A stretch of DNA of 64,000 bases, taken from positions 3,867 through 67,866 of the forward strand of contig CAYOID010000006.1 of the NCBI GenBank assembly GCA_964403955.1, read 5' to 3'. Under the pieces are notes generated by a model, which did no database searches, was not told where the DNA came from, and saw only the letters and a list, made by a program, of their open reading frames with translations. The stretch comes from an uncultured Desulfohalobiaceae bacterium (lineage in GTDB: Bacteria > Desulfobacterota > Desulfovibrionia > Desulfovibrionales > Desulfothermaceae). The position numbers and the translations under genes were made by a program. This document shows, one piece after another, positions 25,008 to 39,993 of this stretch (its first letter is position 1; every line of letters begins with the position of its first letter).

Positions 25008-26275
25008 CCTCCAATCTCCATTCCAGGCCGGTGGCCAGACGTGTGATGCTCTCCCTGGGCTTTCGATCGGAGCAGCGTGCGGATCGAAGCCAGGAAGGCC
25101 CTGGCCTGATGCCTGGTTCCTTTGATTTTTTCAGCTCTGGCAAAGGCTGTTTCAGCCCGCTGCCAGTCCTGCAGCTGGCTGGAAGCCAGACCGACGAGCA
25201 TGGCCATGGAGCCGAGCTGCCCATCCTGTTCCAGGGCTTGTTCTGCGCTTTGAATCGCCTGTTCAAAACGGCCGAACCGATAGAGGATCTTGGCTTTTTC
25301 AGCCAGAATGGGTGCAGAGGCTCTGACCTCCAGGGCCCTGTCCATCCAGGCTACCGCCTCATCATGCCGAAAGGCCCTGGCATACCAGGCAGCGATCTCC
25401 CGGCACTCTTCGAGGTCTGGATCGGCCCCGGCACCCTTTTCCAACCTTCTGGCCGCAGAAAGCGGGGCGTTCATGGCCTGATACAGATGGGCCAGCTCTT
25501 TCCACCTGGAGTTTTCCGTGTCCTGTAAGGCGTAAGCGATCTCCAGGGCTGAAGCAGCCGCGGGCAGATCTTCCTGTTCCAGATGCACCCTGGCCATCAG
25601 CCGCCAATACTGATTCCGGCCTGGCGTTCGCTGCACCAGAATGTCCAGGAACCTCTCGGCCCTGACAGGGTTCTCCTCTTGAAGGCACAGATTGACCCCC
25701 AACTCCAGCCAGGCTGAGCTGGGGCTTGGATGATGCTGAAACAATTCCTCCAGAAGACCCAAACCCTGGCGTGCTTCCCCGGCCTGGGCATACGCTGTGG
25801 CTGCATTGTAGAGCAGGTCCGGGCTCGACTCCTGTCCGAGCTCGAAGGCCTTGACAAAGGATTCGGCGGCTGCCTCCCAATCCTCTGTGACATAACAGGC
25901 CACGGCATGGTTGTGATGGAGGAGCTCGTGCCCGGGATGGTTCTCAAGGCCGTGCTCGAAGGTCGACCTGGCCTCGTCCTCCCTGTCCAGCTCCAGCAGG
26001 GCGTTCCCGCGCAGGATGAACCACTGGGCCGGGGCCGACTCCGGGGACAGGGACCGGTCCAGGAGGTCCACGCATGCCTTTGGCCTGCCCTTGCCCAGGA
26101 GCTCATAGGCCTGGTACAGGACCCGCTGCTCTCTGGGGCTGAGCTGCTCAGCAGCGCAGATCCCGGCGAAGAGGCCCATCAGGAGCACGAGCACAGTCAG
26201 GGCCTGGATGATCAGCCGCGATCTGACCTTGAATGGCGAAAGTCGAGACATGGCAATCGCTTGAATTGCAATCAC
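25004..26275 (-). CDS. TPR-repeat protein of the TonB2-type cluster
   Basis: ORF track, 423 aa. It has a signal/TM segment and repeated TPR-like helices. The start is uncertain (GTG at 26275 or ATG at 26251). Confidence 0.75.
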   Translation of the reverse strand: MIAIQAIAMSRLSPFKVRSRLIIQALTVLVLLMGLFAGICAAEQLSPREQRVLYQAYELLGKGRPKACVDLLDRSLSPESAPAQWFILRGNALLELDREDEARSTFEHGLENHPGHELLHHNHAVACYVTEDWEAAAESFVKAFELGQESSPDLLYNAATAYAQAGEARQGLGLLEELFQHHPSPSSAWLELGVNLCLQEENPVRAERFLDILVQRTPGRNQYWRLMARVHLEQEDLPAAASALEIAYALQDTENSRWKELAHLYQAMNAPLSAARRLEKGAGADPDLEECREIAAWYARAFRHDEAVAWMDRALEVRASAPILAEKAKILYRFGRFEQAIQSAEQALEQDGQLGSMAMLVGLASSQLQDWQRAETAFARAEKIKGTRHQARAFLASIRTLLRSKAQGEHHTSGHRPGMEIGG

Positions 26276-26302: not shown

Positions 26303-27106
26303 TCAGTCCGGCCAGCGGCAGTGTTGAACAGCGACCCTGTCCGTGATGATCTCCAGGGCATCCCGGATATGCCGCCCAAAGAGATCGATGATGGACGGCA
26401 TGTGTCCCAGGCTCCGCTCTTCGATGGACACTTCAATCCCATGATCTTCAAAAAGCTTTTTCCAGGAATCCTCGTCCCCGGCCAGATCCTCATGAAAGTG
26501 GACTCCGGCCACGAGCATGAAGGGCACCAGCCGGGCTCGCTTGAAACCGGCCTGATCGACCGCCTGAACGATGCCCTCGGCTTCGGGCCAGCCCTCCACC
26601 ACCCCGACAAAAACCCCGTTGCCCAGGTGCTTCCGGGCCATGCTTTCCAAGCAAGGGTAGGCGGTCCAGATGGCGTGATCGGTGCCGTGCCCCACCAGGA
26701 TCAGGGCTTCTTCCCTGTCCAGGTGATCCAGCTCCCGGTCCAGGCCTTTGATGACAGCCTCATAGTCCTGTGGCGAATCCAGGAGGGGCAGCCCGATGGA
26801 GGTCCGCACAGGGCAGCCCTTGACCTCATCCACGAGGCGGTCGAACTCGTGTCCGCAGACCAGGTGCAGGGACTGGACCACCGCCCATTCGTGCCCCTTT
26901 TCCTGCAGTTCCTCCAGAACCTGGTGGGGGTGCTTGAACTCCAGACCCTGATCCTGCTGGATCCTGTCCCTGACCATCCTCGAGGTGAAGGCCCAGCGGA
27001 CTGGATGCTCTGGAAAGCAGGACCGGATTCGTTCGTCGATGATCTTGTAGGTCTGCCTGGCCCGGGTCGTGGTGCCAAAGGCCGTCATCACGATCGGGAC
27101 ACTCAT
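26303..27106 (-). CDS. cbiK: sirohydrochlorin cobaltochelatase CbiK-type, cytoplasmic form (no signal peptide)
   Basis: The motifs MSVPIVMTAFGTTT...ALILVGHGTDH...LVPFMLVAGVHFHEDLAGDEDSW fit CbiK. RBS is GAAGGAGGG. Confidence 0.85.
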   Translation of the reverse strand: MSVPIVMTAFGTTTRARQTYKIIDERIRSCFPEHPVRWAFTSRMVRDRIQQDQGLEFKHPHQVLEELQEKGHEWAVVQSLHLVCGHEFDRLVDEVKGCPVRTSIGLPLLDSPQDYEAVIKGLDRELDHLDREEALILVGHGTDHAIWTAYPCLESMARKHLGNGVFVGVVEGWPEAEGIVQAVDQAGFKRARLVPFMLVAGVHFHEDLAGDEDSWKKLFEDHGIEVSIEERSLGHMPSIIDLFGRHIRDALEIITDRVAVQHCRWPD

Positions 27107-27288: not shown

Positions 27289-30200
27289 TCACCCTGATCT
27301 TCGGCGCCTGCCTCCGGCAACAAACAGGGCCACGACCACCAGGATCCCCAGAGTGGCGAACCACTGCACACCTGAGGACGCCAGCTTCGAGGTCTCGTCC
27401 TGGGAGGCGACCTCTTCCATCTTGTAGCCCTTGACATCCTCGCGCTTGGAACCCTGTTCGGTCTTCCTGGTCTGCTGCTCGTCCCTGGCCTGATCGGCAT
27501 CTTTCAGACTCTGGCTGAGCTGGGCCTGCAGGGTTTGTCTGTCCTGGACCTGCTGGTCGAGCTTCTTGCCCATGGCCTGCTCCAGAGCCAGCTTGAACTC
27601 CTCGACCATCTCCGGGGACATGACCCCAGGCAGGGAGATGATGTTCACCACCATCTGGTTCAGCAGAGGGTTGTTGCAGGTATGGTCGCAGCAGGCCGCG
27701 CCTTTCTCCACCACGTTCAGGGCGTAGTCCGCAGCCAGCTTCTTCCTGACGGTTTCGTCCGCCTCCCAGTAGCCCTTTCGAGCCGCTTCCAGCATCCTGG
27801 CGGTGATGGACTGATAGGCCCAGGGGCTGGCCCGGTTGAAGAACGCTTTCAGATCCTGACCGTGCTTGTCCTGGACATAGACCTCATAGGTCTGTTCCCA
27901 TTTCGCGGCATCCACGGTCTCCGGCACGGTCACCTGCCAGCCCCACATGTGCTCCACGAACTTGGCCATCTCCCCGGCACCGGCATAATCCTCCTCTTTC
28001 ATGCCCTGGATCCATTTCGGGTTCAGGTAGCGGGTCCGCAGCTCCCGCCCCAGCGTCCTGGCCGCGTCCTCCACCTGGACCTCATTCGACACCTGCTGCC
28101 GGGTGATCAGGGTGTCCGGCGCCTGACCGCTCTCTCTGCGCACCGCCAGGGACAGCCCACCCAGATACTGGAACATGTCGTCGTTGTCCATCATTCCGTA
28201 AACATTGGAGGATCTGGAATGGACCGCCGTGTCCACATCTGAGAGCTGGAGCTTGAAGAGCTCTCTGGCCGGCTTGCCCCACAGCCCCTGTCCAAAGGCA
28301 TAGCCCACCCGGTTCTCGTAGACCTCCACGATCTCCTGATCCGACTCCCAGAACCCGGAGTGGCCGGTCATCTCGGAAACCCCGGTCCCGTATGATCCAG
28401 CCTTTTCAGAAAAAATGCGGATGGTGGAAAGGGTCTCGGCCTCCTGCTCATCCAGGCCCTTGTCCATGAGCCGTTTCTTGAGCCGACCGCTGTGCTCCTG
28501 GATGAGGTTGGCGATGTCGGTCTGCAGGGCTGCCTTGCGCACCGCCCGGTCAAGGAAGAGCAGCTTGCCCGGAAAGAGATCCCGGTACAGGCCGGAGGGG
28601 TTGATGAGCACGTCGATCCTGGGACGGCCGAGATCCGGGCCTGGAATGACCCGAGTTCCCGTGACCCGGCCGGCACTGTCCCAGACCGGCTTCAACCCCA
28701 TCAGGTACAGGATGGTGGACTCATTGACCCCCTCGTTGCGGATGGTCTCCGTGGCCCAGAGGACCACGGCCACCTTCTCCGGCATGGTCCCGTTCTGCTG
28801 CACGGATTCCTCGATGATCTGACGGGCCGCCTGCTTGCCCAGTGTCCAGGCCGATTCGGACGGTATCTTCTCCGGGTCAAAGCCGTAGAAGTTCTTGCCC
28901 GTGGGGATGGCCCCAGGGTTGCGAATGGGGTCGTTGCCCTCCCCAGCCGGAATGAACCGACCTTCAAGCCCCTGCATGAGACGGTCGATCTCCAGGGGCC
29001 CTGAATCGGTCAGACCCTGGCGAATGTCCTCGACTTCAGCGTCCGGGTTGATCTCAGCCACAGCCTGGGCAGTCTCCTCCAGGGGCTCTCCCCTGGGGGA
29101 GCGGCCATAGGTGTGCAGCCCATAGGGCATGAGGTTCTCTCTGATCTCCAGGAGATGGTGCTCGATCTCCTCCAGGGCCTCGTCATCCATGTCGTCCAGG
29201 CCAAGATCTGCGGTCAGGCCCAATCGAGCGCTCAGCCCCTGGATCTCCTTCAGCTTGGGTTGTGCAGTCTCACTGTCCAGGGCCTTTGAACGGTTGAAGC
29301 TGTTGATGAGATCGTAGAGCCGGCTGTACTCCCCGTACAGGCCCCCTTTACGCAAAGGCGGAATGAGATGGTCGATGATCACCCCCCGCCCCCTGCGTTT
29401 GGCCTGGATGCCTTCCCCCACATCGTCCACGATGTAGGGGTAGAGGTTGGGAATGTCGGTGAGCATGACCTCCGGAGGGCAGGCATGGGACAGGCCGGCC
29501 TGCTTTCCCGGCAGCCATTCATAGGTCGCATGGGTGCCGAGGTGGATCATGGCGTCGGCCTCGAACCCGTGCTTGAGCCACAGGTAGGCGGCCACGTACT
29601 GGTGATGGGGGTAGAGGGTGGGATCGTGGTAGAGCTTCATGGGGTCGTCCCCCCAGCCCCTGGCCGGTTCCGGCAGGAGCATGACCTGCCCCATCCTGAC
29701 CCCGGGTATGATCAGATCACCGCCTTTGATCATGATCGTGGAGTCCTCCACCGGTCCCCACTGCTCCACCACCCCCTGCCGGAACTCCCGGGGAAGGGTC
29801 TTGAACCACGACCTGTAGGTGGAAACCGGCAGGCGGATCACGGTCCCGTCGGCCAGCATGGCGTCCAGCTCACCCGGGGCCCAGCTGCCCACATTGCGGC
29901 CGGTCTTCAGGATGAGCTCCTTGAGCTCCTCTTCCGTGATCAAGTCCTTTTCTGCAACCCGGTAGCCCTCGGTGCGCATCCGTTCCAGAATGACCTGAAG
30001 GCTGCGAAAGACATTGAGGTAGCTGGCCCCGATGTTCTGTTTGCCCTGGCTGTGGTTGTAATAGAGGATGGCCACCCGTTTGTCCCTGTTGTCCATCTCC
30101 CTGAGCTGGAGCCATGTCTTGAGCCTCGGCAGCACAAGGTCCAGATTCTCATCGATGAGCTCGTATCTGGTCACCTCCCGCCCGGTTTGAGGATCTTGTG

Positions 30201-31197
30201 CCCTGACCGGGCCGGACAGGGGCGTGGGCTCGATCAGGCCGGAGATCTCCGGGTTGGCCATGGTCCAGACCACATGCATCGGGGGGATGCCCCTGGGGTC
30301 CTGGCGCCACTCGGGCAGGGTCTGCCCGTAGAGGTTGATGGCGTTGAAGACCGGGACGTCGAGATCGGACAGGGCCTTTTTGACCCGCTCGTTCATGGCT
30401 GAGTAGAACTTGAGGGAGAAGGCCAGGACGGCGTCCACCTCTGCCTCCTGCCTCTGGTTCAGGAGATACCGCGTCAGGACCTCCTCGTCCTGGCCGAAGC
30501 AGGGGAGCACATTCCAGCCGGCCTCTTCGATCCTGAGGATGAGCTCATCCAGGCACTCCTTCTGGCCGGGAATGAGGGAGGAGGAGAAGAACATCAGCCC
30601 CAGCCAGGGGCGCCGGTCATGGTCCTTGCGAAGGCCCTCATACCAGCTCCGATAGGCTGACAGGCTGGAAAAGATCTCCTTGGCCTCCGGATGGGCGATG
30701 CCCACATCCGGCCGGTTCTGGACGTCCTGGAAGGTCACCGAGGAATCGATCTCCTGGTGGACCACCCGCTTGATGAGGTTCTGGATGTTGGCGGCCGAGA
30801 GGTTGGAGAAGTAGGCCTGAATCTCGGGATCAAAGATGAATCCCCGGTCCTTGAGCTTCTGGTCGTTGCGCGACCCGCGAAGGGCATACACGGGCTTTGC
30901 CCCAGGGTCCTCGTTCTGCAGCAGATACTCGTTGAGCTCCGGCATCATCACGTCCACAATGATCGTCTCGGACCCGGCAATGAAGGCCCGGGCGGATTCG
31001 TTCTCCGCAATGTTCTTGTGGGTGAAGAACCGGACCTCGATCTCCCGGGGCAGGTCCAGGCCTTTGACCGCCTCGTTCACCACCGTGCTGTCCGCCTCGA
31101 TGATGAGCATGGACACGTCTGCGGACAGGGTGGACGAGGACATCAGGACCAGGGTCACAGCCCACAAACGGGCCAGGATCGCTCGGGGGGTCATCAT
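27289..31197 (-). CDS. CobN/ChlH-type chelatase large-subunit homologue with signal-like N-terminus and C-terminal TM anchor (HmuS/BtuS-like)
   Basis: ORF 27289..31299 is trimmed to MMTPRAILARLWAVTLVLMSSSTLSA (GAGG RBS). It carries the CobN core signature IHLGTHATYEWLPGKQAGLS and ends WFATLGILVVVALFVAGGRRRRSG. Confidence 0.88.
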   Translation of the reverse strand: MMTPRAILARLWAVTLVLMSSSTLSADVSMLIIEADSTVVNEAVKGLDLPREIEVRFFTHKNIAENESARAFIAGSETIIVDVMMPELNEYLLQNEDPGAKPVYALRGSRNDQKLKDRGFIFDPEIQAYFSNLSAANIQNLIKRVVHQEIDSSVTFQDVQNRPDVGIAHPEAKEIFSSLSAYRSWYEGLRKDHDRRPWLGLMFFSSSLIPGQKECLDELILRIEEAGWNVLPCFGQDEEVLTRYLLNQRQEAEVDAVLAFSLKFYSAMNERVKKALSDLDVPVFNAINLYGQTLPEWRQDPRGIPPMHVVWTMANPEISGLIEPTPLSGPVRAQDPQTGREVTRYELIDENLDLVLPRLKTWLQLREMDNRDKRVAILYYNHSQGKQNIGASYLNVFRSLQVILERMRTEGYRVAEKDLITEEELKELILKTGRNVGSWAPGELDAMLADGTVIRLPVSTYRSWFKTLPREFRQGVVEQWGPVEDSTIMIKGGDLIIPGVRMGQVMLLPEPARGWGDDPMKLYHDPTLYPHHQYVAAYLWLKHGFEADAMIHLGTHATYEWLPGKQAGLSHACPPEVMLTDIPNLYPYIVDDVGEGIQAKRRGRGVIIDHLIPPLRKGGLYGEYSRLYDLINSFNRSKALDSETAQPKLKEIQGLSARLGLTADLGLDDMDDEALEEIEHHLLEIRENLMPYGLHTYGRSPRGEPLEETAQAVAEINPDAEVEDIRQGLTDSGPLEIDRLMQGLEGRFIPAGEGNDPIRNPGAIPTGKNFYGFDPEKIPSESAWTLGKQAARQIIEESVQQNGTMPEKVAVVLWATETIRNEGVNESTILYLMGLKPVWDSAGRVTGTRVIPGPDLGRPRIDVLINPSGLYRDLFPGKLLFLDRAVRKAALQTDIANLIQEHSGRLKKRLMDKGLDEQEAETLSTIRIFSEKAGSYGTGVSEMTGHSGFWESDQEIVEVYENRVGYAFGQGLWGKPARELFKLQLSDVDTAVHSRSSNVYGMMDNDDMFQYLGGLSLAVRRESGQAPDTLITRQQVSNEVQVEDAARTLGRELRTRYLNPKWIQGMKEEDYAGAGEMAKFVEHMWGWQVTVPETVDAAKWEQTYEVYVQDKHGQDLKAFFNRASPWAYQSITARMLEAARKGYWEADETVRKKLAADYALNVVEKGAACCDHTCNNPLLNQMVVNIISLPGVMSPEMVEEFKLALEQAMGKKLDQQVQDRQTLQAQLSQSLKDADQARDEQQTRKTEQGSKREDVKGYKMEEVASQDETSKLASSGVQWFATLGILVVVALFVAGGRRRRSG

Positions 31198-31246
31198 GGT
31201 ATCTGCCTCGACGCACACAACACTGTTCGACCCTGAGTCTCCGCCA

Positions 31247-33379
31247 TCATCTCGCGCATCCTTTTTGGCAAGCAATATCAGCCCCGAAGGCTCCCTCAAG
31301 ACCCGCTTTTCTGTCTATTGTCCCCTGTCCTCTGGCCTCTGTCTCCTTCTGCACCACTCCATTGAGAATGGCGTTCAAGGCCATGGCCAGGACCCTGGGC
31401 CAGTCATGCCGGCCTGTGACATCTTTCAATTCCTGAATGGGCCTCCCGGCGATGTCGGCAGCCATCTCCCGGCACCAGGTCCTGTATCCCGACATGTCGG
31501 TCAGCAGCCCCTTGTGCACGTCATCGCTCAGAGTGATGGCCGCCTGGAGGAAATCGGCATACTTGGGCTGAAGCAGCACACAGTTCAAGGTGGTCAGGAC
31601 CTCCTGTCTGGAGATGCCCTTTGCGGGCTCAATGTTGGAGACGAGATCGTAGAGGCCGATCCTGCGCTCCTGGAGTCGGTGAAACACGCTGCGCTGGGCG
31701 ACCAGCCCGTTCTGCCTGCCTATCGCTTCCCGAACCCCGGCGTACACGGCGTTGGCGATGAGCTCCCCCAGCTTGGAGTGTCCGCCGGCATTGTCCAGCC
31801 GGGTCCCGGTCCCTTCCGCCACCAGGACGTTGTCCGTGCCTGTGCCGGTGGCCCTGTGCTTCAGGGGGGAGGAGGCGCTGCGGATGTCCATGTCCAGAAG
31901 GGCGGCGGTCTTGGCCTCTGTGGCCGAGATGACGGCCCTGGTCATGGCCCTGGGGCTGAGGGCCATGTTCGGCAGGAGGATGATGTTGATGGTTCCGGGC
32001 TCATAAAAGCGGCCCTCGTCCCGGGACATGCGGACCGCATTGGACCTGACCCCTGCTGTGACCAGGGCGGTCACGGCCATGTCCTTGAACGACCGCGTCT
32101 GCACCGCCAGATTGTCCATGTCCGCCCCGGTGAACAGGAAGCTGGACTGCTCCGGTTCGACCCCGATGACCTCGTAGACCTGAGACCTCACCCAGTCCAA
32201 CCCCTTGTGATGCCCCAGGCTCCAGCTCGGCGGGGGGGAGTAGTGGTTGCCCACGGTGCGGACCCCGCTTCGCTGCCCTTCCAGGGTCGAGACCACGGAC
32301 ATGGGCGCCTTGAACTCCACAATCAGGGACTTGTTCTCAAAATCCTGAATCCGGCTGGTGGCGATCCCGGCTGTACGCACGTACTCCAGGTCCAGATTCA
32401 AAGTCCGGCTGCCGACGATCTCTTCCTCCCGGACCAGGTTCTCCTGCCTGGCGAACTCCCGGGCATAGATCCTGGACGCCAGCCAGGCCACGAAGTCTCC
32501 GCTGTGGGTGGCTGCCCTGCAGGTCAGGGCGCAGGGGAACCAGAAGAGAGCACCCTCCTGCACGGCCTGGGCATCCCTCCACCCGGGTTTGGAGAAGAAC
32601 CTCTCCGCAACCTCCCGGTCCCCGCCGCAGCCGTAGATGACCTGGGGATCGAAGTCCTGCCACTCCTGTTGGGTGACCGGAACGATCTCACCGTCTTTTC
32701 CCAACTCGGGCGGTATGCCCCCGGCCAGCCGGATGAGCTCGGTCTGAAACGAGTCCTGCCCCGGTGTCATGACCCGGTCCCGGCCCATGAGCCGGATGAC
32801 TCGTTTCCTCCTGGACTCAGGGATCCTGACCATCTTGTCCTGAATGAGGTCCAGCTGGGCCTGAATCCCCTCCACAATGGACCTGGCCTCGCTCTCCCTT
32901 GCAAACATCCGCCCCAGAAGGCGGATCTCCTCAAAGCTGTCCGCAATGGACTCGGTCTTCAGGGTCACGACCTGGACCTCGGATCCGGCAAATTCCTTGC
33001 GCACCGCATCGTGCAGGGTGGAGGCCATGACCACATCGGGGTTCAGGGCTTTGATCCGCTCCATGCAGGGGCAGAAGAAGCTGCCCACGATCTCCTTGGC
33101 GTGCACCTCGGCCGGCATGGTCGAGTGCAAGGTCAGCCCCTGGAGATGCTCCCCGGCCCCCAGGGCGAACATGATCTCCGTGATTGACGGAACCAGGGAG
33201 ACCACCCGCTGAGGGGGTTCTGCAAAGGAAACCCGTTGTCCCAGGTCATCGGTGAACTCGATCGGTTTGGCCCAGGCCGGAACGGAGACGGCCACAACGA
33301 AAACCAGCAGCAGCGTGCCGACCAGGCTGATCCGACGTGAAAGACCTTGGATTGCATTGTTGACCGTGGACATGCGCAT
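31247..33379 (-). CDS. fusion protein: signal peptide + BtuF-like binding domain + CbiZ (adenosylcobinamide amidohydrolase) domain
   Basis: N-terminus: LVGTLLLVFVVAVSVPAWAKPIEFTDDLGQRVSFAEPPQRVVSLVPSITEIMFALG. C-terminal half: ...FYEPGTINIILLPNMALSPRAMTRAVISATEAKTAALLD...TGTGTDNV, which is CbiZ-like. ATG 33373 is a possible alternative start. Confidence 0.82.
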   Translation of the reverse strand: MRMSTVNNAIQGLSRRISLVGTLLLVFVVAVSVPAWAKPIEFTDDLGQRVSFAEPPQRVVSLVPSITEIMFALGAGEHLQGLTLHSTMPAEVHAKEIVGSFFCPCMERIKALNPDVVMASTLHDAVRKEFAGSEVQVVTLKTESIADSFEEIRLLGRMFARESEARSIVEGIQAQLDLIQDKMVRIPESRRKRVIRLMGRDRVMTPGQDSFQTELIRLAGGIPPELGKDGEIVPVTQQEWQDFDPQVIYGCGGDREVAERFFSKPGWRDAQAVQEGALFWFPCALTCRAATHSGDFVAWLASRIYAREFARQENLVREEEIVGSRTLNLDLEYVRTAGIATSRIQDFENKSLIVEFKAPMSVVSTLEGQRSGVRTVGNHYSPPPSWSLGHHKGLDWVRSQVYEVIGVEPEQSSFLFTGADMDNLAVQTRSFKDMAVTALVTAGVRSNAVRMSRDEGRFYEPGTINIILLPNMALSPRAMTRAVISATEAKTAALLDMDIRSASSPLKHRATGTGTDNVLVAEGTGTRLDNAGGHSKLGELIANAVYAGVREAIGRQNGLVAQRSVFHRLQERRIGLYDLVSNIEPAKGISRQEVLTTLNCVLLQPKYADFLQAAITLSDDVHKGLLTDMSGYRTWCREMAADIAGRPIQELKDVTGRHDWPRVLAMALNAILNGVVQKETEARGQGTIDRKAGLEGAFGADIACQKGCAR

Positions 33380-33458
33380 ACCTCTACGATCCGCTTTTCA
33401 GACTGACATGTGGTGTGAAAACATTGGTTCGCGACGGATGGGGGATTACCATTGACCC

Positions 33459-33526
33459 ATAGGGGCGAGCGGCGCTCGCCCGTCTGGAGCGGTGCTCGCC
33501 CGTCTTCTCTGGAACGGCGCTCGCCC
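33459..33526. repeat. REP-like GGGGCGAGCGGCGCTCGCCC plus two partial copies
   Basis: The sequence reads ATAGGGGCGAGCGGCGCTCGCCC GTCTG GAGCGGTGCTCGCCC ... ACGGCGCTCGCCC, in the spacer upstream of the BtuF-CbiZ gene. Confidence 0.7.
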
Positions 33527-33584
33527 TCTTTTCCGGGTCAGCGCCACTGACCCTCACGCCGGACGGGGGGAACGTGCTGACGCG

Positions 33585-33956
33585 TCATTGTTCATCCGGC
33601 ACATAGATCATGGTGCCGTCTTCCAGGCGGTAGGCGGTGCCGAGGCGTTCCCCCCGGCCCTGGGCCGTCTTCTCCGTCACCTTCCTGGCCTCGATCGTGG
33701 TGCCCTTCTTGGTGATGATCTCCATCTCTCCCTGGGCGCTCTTTTTCATGATGGTCAGCTCCGAGTGCTCACTGAAAAGATCCTGCAGGTGGTAGGCGGA
33801 AAAGAGTGTAAAGATGAGTCCGACAATGAAGACCAGGCCCAGGTCAAACAGGTTGGCCACTCCGCTTAAGGGGTCGTTGGCTTCGCCCCCTCTGCGCGGC
33901 TGCACCGTGTAGCCCCTGTCCTGAATCCCTGCTCGCCGTTTCATGAAATATCGCAT
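33585..33956 (-). CDS. DUF2149-like single-TM protein (ExbD-position partner of the MotA homologue)
   Basis: Internal start MRYFMKRRAG (RBS GAGGAAGGG). It has the TM segment LFDLGLVFIVGLIFTLF followed by a soluble beta-rich tail. Confidence 0.7.
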   Translation of the reverse strand: MRYFMKRRAGIQDRGYTVQPRRGGEANDPLSGVANLFDLGLVFIVGLIFTLFSAYHLQDLFSEHSELTIMKKSAQGEMEIITKKGTTIEARKVTEKTAQGRGERLGTAYRLEDGTMIYVPDEQ

Positions 33957-34034
33957 CGTTCCCTTCCTCAGATCACAGACAGCCACACCATCCCGAAACC
34001 CCAAGCATCACCTGTTCTGATCACTCCTGGCTTG

Positions 34035-34240
34035 AGCTCGTATGAAACTTCAGAAAAAAAGGCCCCCTCAGCCTTCGGCAGCTCCCCTGAGTACAGGGGA
34101 GCAGTCAGAGGAGCCAGCCCGAAAGTTTCTGCCTTGATCAAACTGGCAAAGAATGAACTGGAGCAATCACCCGAGTGCTCCAATTTTTGCACTTAAAATC
34201 AAAGAGATAAATTCAGTTTTCCCAGCGGCAAAACTGAATT
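34035..34240 (-). repeat. modular intergenic repeat, long form, inverted relative to 20085-20315
   Basis: Modules: C(rc) 34037-34050, D(rc) 34122-34146, H 34214-34236. It has the same internal hairpin CTCCCCTGAGTACAGGGGAG as the partner copy. Confidence 0.8.
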
Positions 34241-34281
34241 CTTTCTTCTGTCTTCTGCTCTCTGTCCTCTGTCTTCTGTCT

Positions 34282-34950
34282 TTACAGCGCCATGTGTGCC
34301 AATGCCTCACTGGTGCTTTGCGACGCATTGTCTGCTCTGTCGTGATCCTGGATCTCTGGAGTCTGGGTCAGGATTTCCGTGGCCAGCTCCATATTCTTGA
34401 CATCCTCCTCCACCCAGCGGCTCCTGATGGTCAGGAAGAAAAAGGCCAGCAGCCCCAGGGCCAGGCCGACCACGGTGGTGGTGAAGGCAATGACCAGGTC
34501 GGAGGTCAGCTTGGACATGTCCCCCTGACCCAGGGCAGCCAGTCCCGTGCCCATGGGGATCAATGTCCCGATGAGTCCCAGGCCCGGGGCCACCCGGACC
34601 AGGATGCGCAGGCGGTCAAGGGACTTCCAGACCCGCTGGGTGGCGTCCTGGAGAACGTTTTCCACCTTTTCCTCGGACCATGAGTGCCCTGCCAGGACCT
34701 TCTGCAGCCTGCGGACATAGCCCCTGCACCGTTGGGACAGGAAGGGGCCGTCCGGCTGGGCCTGGATCCTGTCCGGAAGGTTCTCCGGAAGGACCTTCTC
34801 CATTCGGAAACGTTCCAGCCATTCCGCGAAGAAGCCGCCTGCATAGACGATCATCCATACGATGAGGATGGCCAGCATGAAGAGGACCGGGAAGAGCAGC
34901 GAAGAGGAAACAAGGTAGATGAAGGTCTTTATGAACGCTCCGAGAGCCAT
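34282..34950 (-). CDS. MotA/TolQ/ExbB proton-channel family protein
   Basis: ORF track, 222 aa, containing ...APGLGLIGTLIPMGTGLAALGQGDM...VIAFTTTVVGL... Confidence 0.85.
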   Translation of the reverse strand: MALGAFIKTFIYLVSSSLLFPVLFMLAILIVWMIVYAGGFFAEWLERFRMEKVLPENLPDRIQAQPDGPFLSQRCRGYVRRLQKVLAGHSWSEEKVENVLQDATQRVWKSLDRLRILVRVAPGLGLIGTLIPMGTGLAALGQGDMSKLTSDLVIAFTTTVVGLALGLLAFFFLTIRSRWVEEDVKNMELATEILTQTPEIQDHDRADNASQSTSEALAHMAL

Positions 34951-35699
34951 GGGCGAAATCCTTTGCTGCGATGTTTGTGGGCCGCGTAGCCGACAGCGAA
35001 CGCGGTCAGGACAAAGACTGCCAGCCCTGCAGCCTGGGCAGGGCTGACCAGGGACTTTTCCCCTGGATAGGAGGCCAGACTGTAAATCTCATCCAGCTGG
35101 CTGAACTGGGGCATGACCATGACCGAAAGAAGAAAAAAGGCGGCCATGGACACCATGGCCCCACCCAGAAGCGACTCCGGAGATGTCTTGAAAACGGGGA
35201 ACAGGAGTGTGAGCAGCAGGGCTGTCACCAGCCCGGTCCCCACAAATCCGGCCCAGACCAGAACCAGGGAGATCACCCCGGCCTGGGGGAAGAAGGCCAG
35301 GAGCAAAGAGACATTGAAAAAAATCACCAGGGCGCAGACAGGACAGGGCATGACCAGAGCGATCCACCCCAGGCTCCTGTGCGATCCTGTCGTGGTTCTG
35401 CTGAGCAGAATCCAGCCCCAGACCAGGAGCAGCCCGGCCAGGAGGACATGGATGAGCATCCCGGACCGCATCACCTCCTGGAGCATCTGGAAGTGATTCA
35501 GGATGTTGACCTGCTCCAGAACCCAGAAGGACAGGGAGAACAGACCGGCATAGAGGACGGCGTAGGCGCACAGCCCCAGGACCTTGATTCGAACCCGGGC
35601 CTGGCTCGTCTTCAGGACATAGTGCAGACCGAGGCCGTTCTTGAGGGCAAAAATCCCCAGGGAGAAGGCCAGGCCCAGAATGAGGGCCTTGTATTCCAT
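34929..35699 (-). CDS. polytopic membrane protein, DUF2162-like
   Basis: Internal start MEYKALILGLAFSLGIFALKNG... It has about 7-8 hydrophobic helices and a CPVC motif (VMPCPVCALVIFF). It overlaps the MotA start by 22 nt. Confidence 0.6.
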   Translation of the reverse strand: MEYKALILGLAFSLGIFALKNGLGLHYVLKTSQARVRIKVLGLCAYAVLYAGLFSLSFWVLEQVNILNHFQMLQEVMRSGMLIHVLLAGLLLVWGWILLSRTTTGSHRSLGWIALVMPCPVCALVIFFNVSLLLAFFPQAGVISLVLVWAGFVGTGLVTALLLTLLFPVFKTSPESLLGGAMVSMAAFFLLSVMVMPQFSQLDEIYSLASYPGEKSLVSPAQAAGLAVFVLTAFAVGYAAHKHRSKGFRPWLSERS

Positions 35700-35846
35700 A
35701 GCGGAAACCGATCCCGTTGTTGTACCAGTCTGGAATTTTTTTCTGGACAAGGCTTCAAGTGAAAAAGGATTGGAGTGCGTGAATCCGTGTTCACGCACTC
35801 CAATCCATGAGCCATTTGCTCAATGCATCCAGTTCACATATTGAAA

Positions 35847-37832
35847 TCAGAACATGTATTCCACTCCAAGCACAAAGCTCCTGCCTGGCATGGGATAGCC
35901 TTTGACATAGGCATAGTCCTTGTCCAGAAGATTGTGGACTTCGCCCCGCAGGCTCAAATCCCCATAGGAGCCAAAATCCAGGATACGCTTTTCAACACTC
36001 AGGTTGGCCACGGTGAAACCGCCTTTCTCAATCACCGGAGCGGGGAAGCCGGATTCAAAATCCTGGATGTCCAGCTCACCGATGTAGGCAAAATTGAGCC
36101 TGGCCGAAAAACCGTCATAGTCTGAGACCATCAGTCCGTAGGACAGGTTCCATTCCGATGTGTACAGGAGATCTTCGTCAGTCTCCTCGTCCTCGAATTC
36201 AGTCAGGTAGGTGAAGTTGAAATAGGGCTTGATCTGCCAGTTCAGGTTCAGCAATGAAGCCACGTCATACGAGAGCTCGCCTTCGAAACCGGACACCGTG
36301 GCCTCGCCTACGTTGTCCCAGGTCTGCACACCGCCTTGACCAGCAACGCTGACAATTTTGTCTTCAAAATCAGTGTAAAAGTAGGTCAAAGAAGAATCGA
36401 AGGCTCCAAAGTACACATCAATGCCTGCTTCATAAGTTTCACTCTTTTCTGGGTCCAGATCCGGGTTGCCCTTAAAGGGCGTACCAAAGCCGCTGACAAA
36501 ATCAGCGGCCAGCTGCTGGGCGCTGGGCATTCTGAATCCCTGCCCATAGTTGGCCCTGAGCTTGATGTTCTCCAGTGGGAGATAGGCCATGCCCAGCTGA
36601 GGACTGAGATCATCGGCATCCTCAGTTCCGCCCTGTCCCTCCTTGACCTCGACTTCAAAATCATCGTAACGAGCCCCGCCGGAGAGGATGAGGCTGTCGT
36701 TCAGAAATCTGGCCTTGCCCAGAAGAAAGAAGGCCGGGTTGTCATACTCTGTTTTGACCGGGTCAAAATCCTGTTCAATGTCATAGTTGAGCCAATCCAC
36801 ACCTGCAGTCAGGCGATAAGGTTCTGGGTTCCAGGTCAACTGTGCCTGAGCTCCCTGATAGTCAGTGTTGTTTTCAAAGGGGATGCCGTCATCCCAAAAA
36901 TCCGGGTTGCTGGCCACTGGATCAACATTCTTGTTGTCGTCCTCACCCACAAAGTACCTGGCTTTCCAGGAGAACAGCCCGTCAGGTGTTGCACCGTCAT
37001 ACATGAAATCAAATGATTCGTTGGACTTGTCTGCGTAGTCGTCCAGGTCGTTCTGGCTCAGGTAGCTGGGCGTTCCAGCTTCATCGACCTCGAACGAGTT
37101 GACGATGACCCCGAGACGATTCTTGGGCAGGAACTCGTAGCCCAGATTCAGACTCACATTCACCTTTTCGTCGTAGCCGGTGTTGGCATACTCATCTCCA
37201 TCTGCCGTGTCGTAATCATCCATGGTGCTTCTGCTCACACTGCCGGAAAAGTCGAAGCCCTCCAGCGCTCCGGAAAAACCGGCCGAGATTTCCTCATGCC
37301 CAAAGCTGCCCAGCTCTCCCTGCACAAAAACCGATGGTTTGCCTTTGCCCTGCCTGGTGATCACATTGACCAGGCCTCCGATGGCAGATGAACCGTACTG
37401 CACGGAAGCCGGTCCGCGAATGATCTCCACCCGCTCTATGTTCTTAGTCATGATCTTGGCCAGATTTCCGGTGCCGATTCTGCGGCCATCGAGCAGGACA
37501 ATGACCTTGCCTTCCAAATCAATACCCATAGCATTGGTGCGAAATCCCCGAATTCCAATGGAGGTCAGGGTGCCCGGGTACTTGTTGACATAACCAATCC
37601 CTTGCTCGGCCAGCAGGTCACCCAAATCCCGCGCCGTTGACATCTTGATTTCCTGTTCCTCCAGAACTGTCACATGTGAGGTCACTTCCCGCTGAAACTC
37701 TTTGACCCGTCCAGCAGTGACCACCACTTCATCCAGTCTCGTGGTCGCATTGCCCGCTTGAGCGTTCATCGTTTGTGGAATGAACAACCCCATTGTCAAG
37801 AGGCAGAAAAGGAAAACACTTCGTTTGGCCAT
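35847..37832 (-). CDS. TonB-dependent outer-membrane receptor (BtuB-like by riboswitch context)
   Basis: ORF track, 661 aa. It has a signal peptide, the TonB box DEVVVTA, a plug domain, and ends ...SFVLGVEYMF. Confidence 0.92.
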   Translation of the reverse strand: MAKRSVFLFCLLTMGLFIPQTMNAQAGNATTRLDEVVVTAGRVKEFQREVTSHVTVLEEQEIKMSTARDLGDLLAEQGIGYVNKYPGTLTSIGIRGFRTNAMGIDLEGKVIVLLDGRRIGTGNLAKIMTKNIERVEIIRGPASVQYGSSAIGGLVNVITRQGKGKPSVFVQGELGSFGHEEISAGFSGALEGFDFSGSVSRSTMDDYDTADGDEYANTGYDEKVNVSLNLGYEFLPKNRLGVIVNSFEVDEAGTPSYLSQNDLDDYADKSNESFDFMYDGATPDGLFSWKARYFVGEDDNKNVDPVASNPDFWDDGIPFENNTDYQGAQAQLTWNPEPYRLTAGVDWLNYDIEQDFDPVKTEYDNPAFFLLGKARFLNDSLILSGGARYDDFEVEVKEGQGGTEDADDLSPQLGMAYLPLENIKLRANYGQGFRMPSAQQLAADFVSGFGTPFKGNPDLDPEKSETYEAGIDVYFGAFDSSLTYFYTDFEDKIVSVAGQGGVQTWDNVGEATVSGFEGELSYDVASLLNLNWQIKPYFNFTYLTEFEDEETDEDLLYTSEWNLSYGLMVSDYDGFSARLNFAYIGELDIQDFESGFPAPVIEKGGFTVANLSVEKRILDFGSYGDLSLRGEVHNLLDKDYAYVKGYPMPGRSFVLGVEYMF

Positions 37833-37964
37833 AACCTTCCTCCTTTCATGTGAAGAGCTTATGGCCCGGGACTTTGCCCGGACCAGCGCCTTTGAGAGCG
37901 ATCCGGGGATGTCCCTTTTTCATCCGCACTGATCATGCCGGGAACTGGTTCCGAGTCCCGGACA

Positions 37965-38130
37965 GACTTTTCTTCAGGCAGGTCTTCTGACTCTCGGATC
38001 GTCCTACTCGCCGCGCCTTCCCATCCGGCTCATGCCGGCAGTGGCTCTTTGCGGCTTTCGTCCCCGATCACAGCGGCGGGCCCGTCCCTGACTTGCACAG
38101 AGTTCCCTTTTCAGCCTGGCTTCGCTTGGT
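37965..38130 (-). promoter_or_regulatory. cobalamin (B12) riboswitch, copy 1
   Basis: The minus strand reads AAAAGGGAACUCUGUGCAAGUCAGGGACGGGCCCGCCGCUGUGAUCGGGGACGAAAGCCGCAAAGAGCCACUGCCGGCAUGAGCCGGAUGGGAAGGCGCGGCGAGUAGGACGAUCCGAGAGUCAGAAGACCUGCCUGAA. The GGGAA, GCCACUG and B12-box AGUCAGAAGACCUGCC elements are all present. Confidence 0.9.
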
Positions 38131-38235
38131 TTTCCTTGTTTCCAGCGAAGCGGGCACCTGAAGAAGCAGTAAGGTGCAGCCCCATGGGTGTGGTGGCATG
38201 AGGCTGCCTTTTTCAAAGAACGTTCATCGTTTTAT

Positions 38236-39141
38236 TTACTTGAAATGCGAAAAAGCCCCCTCGAGGTGGCCGACCCAGATGTCCACGATGTTGTCGAACT
38301 CGGCAGTGCCCTTGAGCACGGCCTCGGTCTCGATGCCTTCCTCGGCCAGGATCGCTGTCCAGGAGTCAGCCTCGTCACCGGCCATGTCGTTGCGCACATG
38401 GTCCCCGGCCACGGACATGAAAGGCATGAGCCAGGCCTTTTGAATGCCCCTGGACTTGAGCTCGGGCAGAATGTCCTCCAGGAGGGGTGCCCCCTCGACA
38501 ACAGCCACATAGACGTTGGGGTCCTTGCGCTGGAACTTGTAGGCCATGGCCTGGTAGAAGGCATTGCTGGGGTGGTGGGTGCCGTGGCCCATGAAAATCA
38601 CCGCCTCGTCAGCCTTGCGTTCCTCCGGGATGTTCTCCAGCATGGCCTCTCGGACCGCTTCCAGGTCATGGGAGGCAGCCAGGAGGGGGTAGCCCACCAG
38701 GATCTTGTCAAACCCGCCGGACATGGACTCGAACCCGTTGACCAGGGACATGAGGTCGTGGAACTCGGCCCCGCCGATGGTGTGCAGGGACTGAACCGCC
38801 ACATGGGTGAAGTCCTCATCCATCATCCTGGCCAGGGCCATGGCTGGCGAATCGAGGTCTTTGCCCTCTTTGGCCAGCTTGTGGCGGATGATCTTCGAAG
38901 TGTACCCCCAACGGACCGGAACCTCGGGAAAGGCCTTCCTGACTTCAGCCTCGATGTTCTCGAACGAGGCCTGGGCCTGGGGATAGCTGGACCCGAATGC
39001 CACCAGGAGGATACCCTTCTTGACCTCCTTCTTGTGCCCATGCCCGTGCCCGTGCCCATGCTCTCCGGCCCATCCCGAGCTGGCCAGCATGAGACTCACC
39101 ACAAACACAAACAGCATCTGCCTCAAGGACTTCAATTTCAT
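38236..39141 (-). CDS. cbiK: CbiK-type cobaltochelatase with signal peptide and (HG)n tract (periplasmic CbiK)
   Basis: Start is set at MKLKSLRQMLFVFVVSLMLASSGWAGEHGHGHGHGHKKE (RBS GGAGG). The motifs VIFMGHGTHHPSN...LMPFMSVAGDHVRNDMAGDEADSW fit CbiK. Confidence 0.85.
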   Translation of the reverse strand: MKLKSLRQMLFVFVVSLMLASSGWAGEHGHGHGHGHKKEVKKGILLVAFGSSYPQAQASFENIEAEVRKAFPEVPVRWGYTSKIIRHKLAKEGKDLDSPAMALARMMDEDFTHVAVQSLHTIGGAEFHDLMSLVNGFESMSGGFDKILVGYPLLAASHDLEAVREAMLENIPEERKADEAVIFMGHGTHHPSNAFYQAMAYKFQRKDPNVYVAVVEGAPLLEDILPELKSRGIQKAWLMPFMSVAGDHVRNDMAGDEADSWTAILAEEGIETEAVLKGTAEFDNIVDIWVGHLEGAFSHFK

Positions 39142-39173
39142 ACTTTTTTCCTCCACTTTTTTGAAAATATGGT

Positions 39174-39698
39174 TTATCCAGAGCTGCCCAACTTTCTCAA
39201 ATCGTACGACTTCCCCTGTCCCATGCTGATGGAGATGCGGTCCCCCTCATCCGACACAGTGGTCGTACCCAGGAGCTCCCGCATCGTCTCGCCATCCCAG
39301 AACCGGATCCAGTTGGGGAACTCGTCCCTCTTGTCGGAGTCCAGGATGTCTCCCACCTGGACCTTGCTCACCAGGCCCATGGAGTGCTGTGTTGACCCGG
39401 CTTTCAAGGTCAGATGGTAGTAGGAGAATGAATTGAAGAGGAGCTTGCCTTGCATCACCACCTCCCTGTTTGAGATGCAGCTGCCCAGAATGAAACGCAG
39501 CCGCATGAATTCAGAATCCAGTATCCAGCGCAGCCTCTGGCTGCGCTGGGTAGAGAACTCAATGCCAACACACTTCACGACAAACTGATGACCGGGGATA
39601 TTGTATTGATCCCTTTTTGATCGACGCCGCCCTTGCCCAGCCTCTGCTGCAGCGTTTTCTGCATCTTCAGGTTGACCCTGTTCCTGCACCACCGGCAC
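39174..39698 (-). CDS. hypothetical protein, distal part of a riboswitch-controlled ORF pair (possibly one frameshifted gene)
   Basis: ORF track, 174 aa, with a GTG start sitting on a G6 run. This frame opens only 8 codons upstream. There is no recognisable family, though RRRSKR...ISNRE is faintly PilZ-like. Confidence 0.45.
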   Translation of the reverse strand: MPVVQEQGQPEDAENAAAEAGQGRRRSKRDQYNIPGHQFVVKCVGIEFSTQRSQRLRWILDSEFMRLRFILGSCISNREVVMQGKLLFNSFSYYHLTLKAGSTQHSMGLVSKVQVGDILDSDKRDEFPNWIRFWDGETMRELLGTTTVSDEGDRISISMGQGKSYDLRKLGSSG

Positions 39699-39910
39699 CC
39701 CCCATGATCGAAATAGATATGGTCATGGACCTTTTGAAAGCTGAGATCCAGCCCGTTTCGGGGATGGACGTCGCCGTGTGTCCGCTGTCGGCACATGGCG
39801 TAGGACTCGACGCAGGCCGCCATCCACTCGTCCAGATCCTGGTGATCAGTAAAAAGACAACTCAAAGGTTCAGACCTGCTCAACCGCCATAAGTCCGTCT
39901 TCTGTCCCAT
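39575..39910 (-). CDS. hypothetical protein, proximal ORF directly behind riboswitch copy 2
   Basis: Internal ATG (RBS AGGAGG) gives MGQKTDLWRLSRSEPLSCLFTDHQDLDEWMAACVESYAMCRQRTHGD... It overlaps the next ORF by 124 nt in another frame. Confidence 0.5.
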   Translation of the reverse strand: MGQKTDLWRLSRSEPLSCLFTDHQDLDEWMAACVESYAMCRQRTHGDVHPRNGLDLSFQKVHDHIYFDHGGCRWCRNRVNLKMQKTLQQRLGKGGVDQKGINTISPVISLS

Positions 39911-39952
39911 GGAGCGCCTCCTGGGGATGCTGGCTGCATGTTTCGAAAAGCC

Positions 39953-39993
39953 CAAAAAAAATCCCCGGATCGAAGCAACTTCGATCCGGGGAT
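39953..39993 (-). terminator. intrinsic terminator of riboswitch copy 2 expression platform
   Basis: The minus strand reads AUCCCCGGAUCGAAG-UUGC-UUCGAUCCGGGGAU followed by U8. Confidence 0.8.

Follow-up and report, generated by a model that had tools for sequence, protein, structure and literature searches.

We analysed a gene cluster on the minus strand of a 64,000-nucleotide stretch of DNA (hereafter the window) from an uncultured Desulfohalobiaceae bacterium (assembly GCA_964403955.1, contig CAYOID010000006.1). The cluster lies behind a cobalamin (B12) riboswitch and encodes a large CobN-like protein, here called BtuS, together with a MotA-type channel protein and a protein of the family DUF2149. 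Our favoured explanation, to which we give about an even chance, is that of an envelope system, repressed by B12 and of the BtuS/HmuS type, in which the MotA-type and DUF2149 proteins would act as a stator serving BtuS. That this pair serves BtuS rather than the neighbouring TonB-dependent receptor is, taken as a claim of its own, moderately probable. Three independent comparative lines support, and do not prove, a dedicated proton-driven stator acting on the chelatase: the conservation of the pair with the chelatase in archaea, its coexistence with a canonical TonB system, and a C-terminal module shared by its putative clients.

Every part that a first-pass annotation had listed for positions 27289-38130 was found in its place with Rfam and Pfam, and the families CobN-Mg_chel, MotA_ExbB, DUF2149, DUF2162 and TonB-dependent receptor all gave Pfam matches. 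Along the minus strand, riboswitch 1 (37960-38176; Rfam RF00174, 105.9 bits, E 1.7e-25), somewhat wider than the 37965-38130 first given, is followed by a TonB-dependent outer-membrane receptor with a signal peptide (35847-37832; Pfam Plug and TonB_dep_Rec_b-barrel), a polytopic DUF2162 membrane protein in the position of HmuT (34929-35699; Pfam, 120 bits), a divergent MotA/TolQ/ExbB-type channel protein equivalent to HmuU (34282-34950) and the DUF2149 protein equivalent to HmuV (33585-33956; Pfam, 109 bits). Then come an exported fusion of a BtuF-type binding domain (Pfam Peripla_BP_2, residues 59-279) with a CbiZ amidohydrolase (residues 355-549, 183 bits) at 31247-33379, with a hydrophobic signal at its N-terminus by hydropathy; BtuS itself, 1302 residues long (27289-31197; Pfam CobN-Mg_chel, 1082 bits); and a CbiK sirohydrochlorin cobaltochelatase that carries no signal peptide and is predicted to be cytoplasmic (26303-27106; Pfam CbiK, 215 bits). 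All of these parts lie on the minus strand, as had been claimed. The description of the run as uninterrupted has to be qualified, given a hairpin with a T-run at 35767-35806 and gaps of 200-330 nt before the DUF2149 and btuF-cbiZ genes.

The resemblance to the haem operon hmuYRSTUV, and the label BtuS, which had been suggested for such neighbourhoods, agree with the literature, in which HmuS is CobN-like, HmuU a MotA/TolQ/ExbB protein and HmuV a DUF2149 protein (PMC11681262, PMC6460266, PMC10434189). The name BtuS dates from 2003 and was given to a third group of CobN relatives, linked to metalloporphyrin salvage, as cited in PMC6460266. Plasmid pSZ77 of Geobacter lovleyi was noted in 2012 to carry an orphan CobN without CobS/T, among TonB-type genes (PMC3403914). 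For B. thetaiotaomicron, work of 2025 showed HmuS to be a membrane-bound dechelatase that turns haem into protoporphyrin IX and Fe(II) and uses NADH and not ATP, and its structure was solved by cryo-electron microscopy (PMC12583661). The statement that the mechanism is not settled thus needs correction for the iron removal by HmuS, which proceeds without ATP and with NADH as reductant (PMC12583661), and stands for the rest. Recombinant HmuS lacking its membrane helices stops after 1-2 turnovers, ATP not being needed (PMC12583661), which leaves room for a missing energiser.

We then quantified how constantly the genes travel together. One genome per species was scanned, giving 80 loci whose relatives share 34-67% identity, and profiles were built for annotation; the counts below cover those 50 loci whose flanks reach 3 kb or more upstream and 1.5 kb or more downstream. 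The sample was drawn with an alignment of the CobN-like protein and is hence centred on the chelatase, not on the stator. A MotA-type gene lay on the same strand within 6 kb of the CobN-like gene in 49 of the 50 loci, as did a DUF2149 gene, and in the remaining locus the two genes are divergently adjacent. The expected co-occurrence of all five genes was therefore borne out for the MotA-type and DUF2149 genes, which accompany the CobN-like gene in 50/50 loci, and not for DUF2162 (28/50) or the receptor (35/50). Since 22/50 loci, in many clades, are truly without DUF2162, the idea that it is a fixed part of the stator was abandoned: the obligate set is the MotA-type, DUF2149 and CobN-like genes, and DUF2162 is accessory. 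In the DUF2162-less loci of Acidobacteriota, beta-proteobacteria and some Bacteroidota, the receptor gene abuts the MotA gene.

The pair also persists where there is no receptor to serve. DUF2162, MotA and DUF2149 genes stand beside a C-terminally anchored CobN-like gene in Archaeoglobus (L007), Methanobacteriota (L069), Methanoculleus (L075), Methanomicrobia (L077) and Methanotrichaceae (L086), and no archaeal locus of the sample contains a TonB-dependent receptor. Desulfonema magnum has only a riboswitch and the DUF2162, MotA, DUF2149 and CobN-like genes, with no receptor within 10 kb. In addition, the window encodes a full canonical energiser, ExbB (22192-22857), ExbD (21244-21660) and TonB (20468-21184; all by Pfam), besides the small MotA/DUF2149 pair, and the same canonical set occurs in six other loci (L015, L023, L031, L041, L046, L047), which argues that the pair is not redundant with it. 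Because of the archaeal loci, D. magnum and the loci that already have ExbB-ExbD-TonB, the pair appears to follow the chelatase-like protein and not the receptor. As an observation on the sample, one record titled Promethearchaeota archaeon (L061) carries a receptor, a B12 riboswitch and a CobN-like protein that matches a Proteobacteria metagenome-assembled genome (L029) in motif strings, scores and C-terminus; a bacterial contig wrongly sorted into an archaeal assembly is the probable explanation.

The two proteins have the outline of a stator. The MotA-type protein, with three transmembrane (TM) helices by hydropathy, falls in the MotA_ExbB family of channel subunits (PF01618, 53 bits against a cutoff of 22.9) and has no NCBIfam match. 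In its putative partner, the DUF2149 protein, a basic N-terminus is followed by a single TM helix, which contains a near-invariant Asp (NLFD, D38), and by a small periplasmic beta domain; this is the N-in, single-pass layout with a conserved helix Asp of known stator partners. Asp38 lies towards the cytoplasmic end of this helix and is conserved to at least 90% across an alignment of 53 diverse sequences, and the AlphaFold2 model (predicted local distance difference test, pLDDT, 83) consists of a helix at residues 29-54 and six strands. The homologue search for DUF2149 returned close relatives only, and that for DUF2162 gave 19 matches. In DUF2162, a membrane helix contains the motif PCPVC, which does not vary between Desulfobacterota and Archaeoglobus; the AlphaFold2 model of the protein (pLDDT 74) had no significant fold match against the PDB with Foldseek.

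The third line of support comes from the C-terminus of BtuS, where a juxtamembrane motif V-K-G-Y-K-M-E (residues 1255-1261; 27415-27435, minus strand), a proposed coupling element, precedes the membrane helix. G1257 is invariant in the alignment of relatives (A4). Among 86 full-length relatives, 82 have the C-terminal TM helix and 80 a basic tail. The form [VIL]-x-G-x-x-[MLIV], at most 55 residues before the helix, occurs in 80/86 relatives (80 of the 82 anchored ones) against 4.0 expected from shuffled sequences, and a stricter form in 68/86 against 0.5 expected. We also looked at three unrelated, non-chelatase proteins encoded next to distant DUF2149 genes: a Solirubrobacteraceae PKD protein, a 606-residue protein on a Gram-positive-type contig and a Sel1-repeat protein. 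Each of them combines a signal peptide, the motif (V-E-G-F-V-L, L-R-G-M-A-L and V-Q-G-L-G-L, respectively), a linker, one TM helix and a basic tail. Such a shared module is what one would expect if the MotA/DUF2149 pair were a general stator that recognises its clients by it, and in that sense it supports the proposal. On one Gram-positive-type contig (L004:4474-11136), the MotA and DUF2149 genes belong to a series of genes for exported and membrane proteins that lack annotation; a CW_binding_2 protein precedes them, and MetH follows a few genes later.

As regards topology, BtuS had been described as secreted and membrane-anchored, and our results agree. Hydropathy shows a basic and then hydrophobic N-terminus followed by an L-S-A segment, which is signal-like (MMTPRAILARLWAVTLVLMSSSTLSA), and a C-terminal membrane anchor (residues 1276-1294; 27316-27372, minus strand) followed by the tail GGRRRRSG. 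Because both ends are basic, only a periplasmic placement of the bulk fits the positive-inside rule; the body of about 1250 residues is therefore predicted to be periplasmic, whether or not the N-terminal segment is cleaved. For the homologue HmuS of P. gingivalis, fractionation and tests of protease accessibility showed that it sits in the inner membrane and faces the periplasm (PMC13227078), and the same periplasmic anchored layout was predicted in 2019 for BtuS1/2 of B. fragilis (PMC6460266). Near the end of the body, residues ~1170-1186 (27640-27690) hold a Cys/His cluster, A-C-C-D-H-T-C-N-N-P, which is kept in most relatives of the window clade (A4 consensus) and corresponds to S-C-S-G-F-V-C-D-N in HmuS; it may be a metal or redox site.

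The claim that no ChlI, ChlD, CobS or CobT gene accompanies BtuS was likewise upheld for the 64-kb window: Pfam scans, including those of the other large open reading frames (ORFs), and a Walker-A scan of all ORFs found only FeoB and the ABC ATPase. Beside the 80 relatives, a heuristic Walker-A scan, as distinct from a profile search, found no ChlI/ChlD-like genes and only ABC-type and STAND ATPases. The search for a AAA+ partner thus covered the window and the flanks of the relatives, not the rest of the genome.

The family placement of BtuS was examined against both HmuS and true CobN. The best relative of solved structure is HmuS (9d26, phmmer E 1.3e-155), with M. tuberculosis CobN at 1.7e-138; the contig index contained no record of exactly the BtuS sequence of the window. 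BtuS shares with HmuS the six-domain body homologous to CobN/ChlH (by Pfam and phmmer) and, by prediction, the membrane anchoring and periplasmic bulk. By contrast, the residues by which HmuS has been defined are largely missing. About 230 residues of HmuS, the Met-rich insertion of domain IV (659-890), are unmatched, and residues 679-696 of BtuS span the gap opposite them. At the head/neck ligands, the H-G-R of HmuS around His254 aligns to Y-S-A, the His254-equivalent Tyr being variable across the window clade, and the region of Met79 is unaligned. In the cleft, only the superfamily-wide equivalent of His538 (H556), Ser1067 and Ser1199 are kept, and Ser1014, Gln1198, Trp1202, His1209 and Glu1212 are replaced by Ala, Ser, Tyr, Asp (Asp1007) and Gln, respectively. 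An Asp occupies the His1209 position in every aligned relative. No HmuY-type match was found in the run 17297-38176, where Pfam assigned each gene to another family, so the operon lacks this hemophore too. Since the Met-rich insertion, His254 and His1209/Glu1212 are missing, the window protein does not count as an orthologue of HmuS by the residues published as defining it, as judged from the alignments.

Nor is BtuS an ordinary CobN. It fell under the NCBIfam cutoff of every CobN and BchH equivalog, the best being NF004645 (1003 bits against 1619), and TIGR02257 gave 649 against 822; unlike CobN, which is cytoplasmic and works with CobS/CobT, it is predicted to be exported, and no partner genes were found in the window. 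Its D-N-D-D-M-F-Q-Y-L-G-G nevertheless matches D-S-D-D-Y-F-Q-Y-H-G-G of true CobN, and the motif is near-universal in the 86 bacterial and archaeal relatives. BtuS has been described as a CobN homologue behind a B12 riboswitch among TonB-dependent and BtuFCD-type transport genes, and this arrangement is present in the window and recurs in relatives; within the 64 kb, the absence of CobS/CobT and ChlI/ChlD partners fits as well. By sequence, the window protein is thus a BtuS-type member of the anchored branch that combines the architecture and gene partners of HmuS with the metal-site motif of the chelatases. In a paralogous Desulfobacterota subclade (L029, L032-L035, L037, L039, L071, L079), S-L-G-K-H replaces H-L-G-T-H at the conserved His motif; the CobN-like genes there are often in tandem and are likewise behind B12 riboswitches.

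The connection of the module to corrinoids, argued before from the riboswitch of the window, was corroborated by the comparison. Riboswitches in the related loci were searched with a covariance model built from nine Rfam-verified ones. B12 riboswitches lie upstream on the same strand in 20/50 loci, and in D. magnum the minimal module directly follows one. The loci with riboswitches belong to the window Desulfobacterota clade, two paralogous Desulfobacterota clades, Brocadiia (2-3 in tandem), one Nitrospirota and one Trichlorobacter (L088), where the same module stands behind riboswitches. The covariance model found none in the sampled Acidobacteriota, Bacteroidota, beta/gamma-proteobacterial and archaeal loci. 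In a Planctomycetota locus, a riboswitch-like element precedes MotA, DUF2149, CobN-like and CobC-like genes, with BluB-like, BtuR, CbiZ-CobU and CbiB genes divergent from them. The exported BtuF-CbiZ fusion accompanies the module in at least 12 related loci, and CbiK adjoins it in 10/50. Because stand-alone CbiZ proteins with a clear N-terminal signal peptide also occur beside the module, in Zoogloeaceae (L059:5774-7012) and Trichlorobacter (L088:13667-14638), periplasmic CbiZ seems to recur and not to be the accident of a single fusion. A Tat-type export signal considered for the window fusion (SRRISL) was dropped, as the motif is not conserved in other fusions. With riboswitches, exported CbiZ, CbiK and cobamide salvage neighbours together, the physiological role of the B12-gated branch is best read as tied to cobamide supply.

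The window contains a second cobalamin riboswitch (40049-40229, minus strand; RF00174, 92.1 bits), and both elements match across model positions 1-189 with scores far above the gathering score of 31.5. Their aptamer cores are 98% identical over 145 nt (direct repeat D1), which points to a leader that was duplicated recently. For riboswitch 1, the leader shows a ribosome-binding site (aaaggagga) ahead of the receptor ATG and no T-run terminator. Riboswitch 2 is followed by an intrinsic terminator with a 15-bp stem and T8 (39961-39993, minus strand), about 800 nt without a recognisable gene, and an exported CbiK of the periplasmic type, with a signal peptide and a GHGHGHGHGH stretch (38236-39156, minus strand; Pfam CbiK, 238 bits). 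In that interval the ORFs 39174-39698 and 39575-40054 have no Pfam match, and the 174-residue product of the former has no relative among the fetched related loci by tblastn.

Between the receptor and DUF2162 genes, a consensus scan found the terminator-like hairpin, with a perfect 17-bp stem and TTTTT (35767-35806, minus strand), which may be an attenuator or a partial or full stop of transcription downstream of the receptor gene. The gaps before DUF2149 and btuF-cbiZ are unusually long in the window, whereas in relatives the same genes abut or overlap. Because of the hairpin with its T-run and these gaps, read-through from riboswitch 1 into btuS is only likely for this genome. The gap of ~300 nt from the MotA-type gene to DUF2149 (33957-34281, minus strand) contains several hairpins, e.g. 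GCTCCCCTG...CAGGGGAGC, a weak terminator-like site at 34058-34076 and purine-rich short repeats at 34240-34278, and could stem from the insertion of a repeat element. The 205 nt that separate DUF2149 from btuF-cbiZ include a 19-20-nt unit (GAGCGGCGCTCGCCCGTCT) in three tandem copies at 33467-33530, with a spacing of 20-25 nt; possible roles are those of operators, of repeat elements or of an internal promoter.

Putting these observations together, we propose the following course of events. When adenosylcobalamin (AdoCbl) is scarce, the cluster would be expressed, and the receptor, driven by the ExbB-ExbD-TonB set of the locus itself, would take a corrinoid into the periplasm. There the exported CbiZ domain could remove the aminopropanol-nucleotide arm, a step that is conceivable in the periplasm because the hydrolysis needs no ATP, and the fused BtuF domain would hand the product to the FecCD/ABC importer. 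BtuS, with its CobN-like His/Asp metal site, would act on the metal centre of a cobalt tetrapyrrole. The MotA-type and DUF2149 proteins would form a proton-conducting stator like ExbB/ExbD, engage BtuS through the C-terminal module (V-x-G-Y-x-M-E motif, linker, membrane helix and basic tail) and supply the conformational work that the AAA+ subunits ChlI/D or CobS/T do in cytoplasmic class I chelatases. The analysis shows which parts are present, their topology and how they co-occur; what the pair does as a stator, how it is coupled, which substrate is handled and in which direction the reaction runs we infer from the comparison, the last two with less assurance. The substrate may be the imported corrinoid, perhaps after its nucleotide loop has been cut by the exported CbiZ. 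BtuS might then alter its metal state, most likely by freeing cobalt, which the adjacent cytoplasmic CbiK could use, or by conditioning the ring for uptake by BtuFCD. We hold tentatively that cobalt is taken from a corrinoid, or inserted into one, in this reaction, and the accessory DUF2162, with its invariant PCPVC in the membrane, could perhaps pass metal or electrons.

Other assignments of the pair have to be weighed against this. In the published model for hmu, HmuU and HmuV are drawn as the energiser of the receptor HmuR (PMC12583661), and by analogy the MotA-type and DUF2149 proteins, with or without DUF2162, could be an alternative ExbB/ExbD-type energiser of the adjacent receptor while BtuS works alone. 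A receptor is indeed present in 35/50 loci, Desulfomonile tiedjei has a TonB-domain gene directly upstream of DUF2162, and isolated HmuS is active for 1-2 turnovers. However, archaeal loci keep the pair with a CobN-like gene and have neither receptor nor TonB, a receptor is missing within 10 kb in D. magnum and in several further loci, the window and six loci already possess the full ExbB-ExbD-TonB set, and Gram-positive-type contigs combine MotA-DUF2149 with other anchored exported proteins; we thus regard this assignment as decidedly unlikely. Work on P. gingivalis instead suggests inner-membrane haem transport by HmuTUV or an effect on HmuS activity (PMC13227078, PMC12094164). Transferred to the window, DUF2162, the MotA-type protein and DUF2149 would be an inner-membrane importer of the tetrapyrrole or of released metal, and BtuS would mainly bind and hand off in the periplasm. 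The polytopic nature of DUF2162, its invariant PCPVC in a helix and its Pfam label 'predicted transporter' fit such a role, as do the similarity of the head/neck region of HmuS to binding proteins and the lack of a periplasmic binding protein or ABC importer in the hmu operon. This lack does not extend to the window, where BtuF, FecCD and an ABC ATPase are available for inner-membrane import. Moreover, DUF2162 is truly missing in 22/50 loci, with the receptor gene abutting the MotA gene, it has no transporter fold match, and haem iron enters B. fragilis via FeoAB (PMC6460266), so that an importer seems unlikely to us.

It could also be that BtuS of the window is an ordinary haem dechelatase for iron supply, the B12 riboswitch being incidental and stemming from an operon shared with corrinoid uptake genes. 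Its best solved relative is HmuS, its receptor is closest to the haem-receptor subfamily, FeoB, DtxR and ZnuA are encoded nearby, and BtuS paralogues of M. barkeri are up under iron-stress-like conditions (PMC10846266). Yet the haem ligands and the Met-rich insertion that define HmuS are missing, the second axial His being an Asp; riboswitches stand directly ahead of minimal modules without uptake genes; and exported CbiZ, CbiK and genes for cobamide salvage recur as neighbours of the module, all of which makes this reading very unlikely. For a stator that serves BtuS, several points weigh on the other side. The DUF2149 protein has no detectable homology to ExbD, TolR or MotB: Pfam gives DUF2149 only, hhalign of its profile against the window ExbD returned a probability of 1% (with a single-sequence template, which makes this a weak test), and Foldseek against the PDB found no significant fold match for its model, the best E being 0.2. 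What likens the pair to a stator is therefore the MotA_ExbB partner, the topology and a single Asp. In addition, the C-terminal motif is a post hoc definition, and only three non-CobN clients were looked at. Purified HmuS converts haem to protoporphyrin without HmuTUV, so a motor is not strictly needed there (PMC12583661). The receptor of the window scores slightly closer to haem receptors than to BtuB (NCBIfam TIGR01785, 204 bits, against TIGR01779, 162; both below their cutoffs), and the hairpin and T-run past the receptor gene may keep the riboswitch from fully controlling the genes downstream. We know of no enzyme that takes cobalt out of a corrin, which is chemically hard. Complex formation, proton dependence and catalysis in the B12-linked branch are putative.

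The minus-strand run goes on beyond the cytoplasmic CbiK to ~17297. By Pfam, a TPR protein (25004-26275), a DUF3450 protein (24207-25007) and a 489-residue MotA/ExbB protein (22769-24238) precede the ExbB, ExbD and TonB genes given above, in an order (20468-26275) that we take to resemble TonB2-type energiser clusters of Vibrio, here inside a B12 cluster. These are followed by a BtuF-like binding protein (19068-20147; Pfam, and 115 bits with a custom BtuF/CbiZ hidden Markov model, BtuF part only), a FecCD permease (18088-19086) and an ABC ATPase (17297-18091), which by their families constitute a BtuFCD-type importer. The close homologues of the window proteins are from Desulfovermiculus and Desulfohalobiaceae, with 67-71% identity, and place the stretch in a sulfate reducer like the Desulfohalobiaceae. 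Farther along, a metal-uptake neighbourhood (5525-15845) comprises two DUF4198 proteins (5525-6385 and 7390-8193), FeoB (8601-11096), a DUF2325 protein (12354-13628), a DtxR-type repressor (14214-14792) and ZnuA (14895-15845); as a parallel, DtxR and ZnuA/ABC-3 genes directly follow the CobN-like gene of Archaeoglobus (L007). Just upstream of riboswitch 2, a truncated phage-type integrase ORF of 189 residues (40313-40882) and two tRNA genes (41185-41257 and 42676-42759) may mark an integration hot spot bordering the cluster.

A secreted CobN without a AAA+ partner is already published, and no member of the B12-gated branch, with its CobN-like site and periplasmic CbiZ, has been characterised. 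The work on HmuS in 2025-26 left questions on the roles of HmuT/U/V, the driving force and the function of homologues outside Bacteroidota and in archaea, and the present locus bears on all three. The MotA-type and DUF2149 proteins are obligate companions of the anchored chelatase even where there is no outer membrane, the conserved C-terminal module is a concrete and mutable candidate for the coupling element, and in a large branch of the family the ties are to B12 sensing, to exported CbiZ and to CbiK instead of haem. The boldest form of the proposal is that the MotA-type and DUF2149 proteins are a previously unrecognised family of proton-driven stators in Bacteria and Archaea, with clients that carry the C-terminal module, and that here this stator replaces the AAA+ motor and drives removal or insertion of corrinoid cobalt outside the cytoplasm after a periplasmic CbiZ step; in all its parts at once this is somewhat unlikely. 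Were it true, it would be the first enzymatic (de)metalation of a corrinoid of its kind and a new route in the cobalt and B12 economy of anaerobes. Should our favoured explanation hold, many sulfate reducers, anammox bacteria and perhaps methanogens would process corrinoids or harvest cobalt in the periplasm by a proton-powered enzyme, models of B12 and cobalt cross-feeding in anoxic communities would change, and the routine annotation of such genes as 'cobaltochelatase subunit CobN' would be corrected.

Among known systems, HmuS and the hmu operon are alike in having a six-domain, periplasm-facing protein of the CobN/ChlH type that is anchored in the inner membrane, has no AAA+ partner and is encoded with a receptor, a polytopic protein, a MotA/TolQ/ExbB protein and a DUF2149 protein. 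The window differs by the lack of HmuY, by the order R-T-U-V-(BtuF-CbiZ)-S instead of Y-R-S-T-U-V, by a B12 riboswitch in place of iron/haem control, and by the adjoining CbiZ, CbiK and BtuFCD. The class I chelatases CobNST and ChlHID are cytoplasmic, ATP-dependent and have AAA+ partners. Their catalytic subunit is homologous, H-x-G-T-H and D-x-D-D-x-F-Q-Y-x-G-G being common to BtuS of the window and M. tuberculosis CobN, whereas BtuS is predicted to be exported and anchored, with no AAA+ gene in the window. The amidohydrolase CbiZ, which acts on cobinamide and pseudo-B12 in archaea and Rhodobacter, is also found as a domain near BtuF-type transport genes; the characterised enzymes are cytoplasmic, whereas CbiZ of the window stands behind a signal peptide and a BtuF domain and is predicted to be periplasmic. 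With ExbB-ExbD-TonB, TolQ-TolR-TolA and MotA-MotB, the MotA/DUF2149 pair shares a channel of the MotA_ExbB family, a small N-in single-pass partner with a membrane Asp and a client held by a single membrane helix. Unlike these canonical stators, the pair would hold its client by a C-terminal helix of a large enzyme and not by the N-terminal helix of a rod of the TonB/TolA type, and it is found in archaea and Gram-positive-type genomes as well. Finally, the BtuS named in 2003 and the CobN of pSZ77 are, so far as the source of the former is cited in PMC6460266, likewise CobN homologues without CobS/CobT in B12-regulated or cobalamin-cluster loci near TonB-dependent transport genes. By the same account, the BtuS of 2003 was predicted for metalloporphyrin salvage and not for de novo synthesis. 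The descriptions published so far are comparative-genomic only. Nothing essential differs, and the window protein is filed under BtuS.

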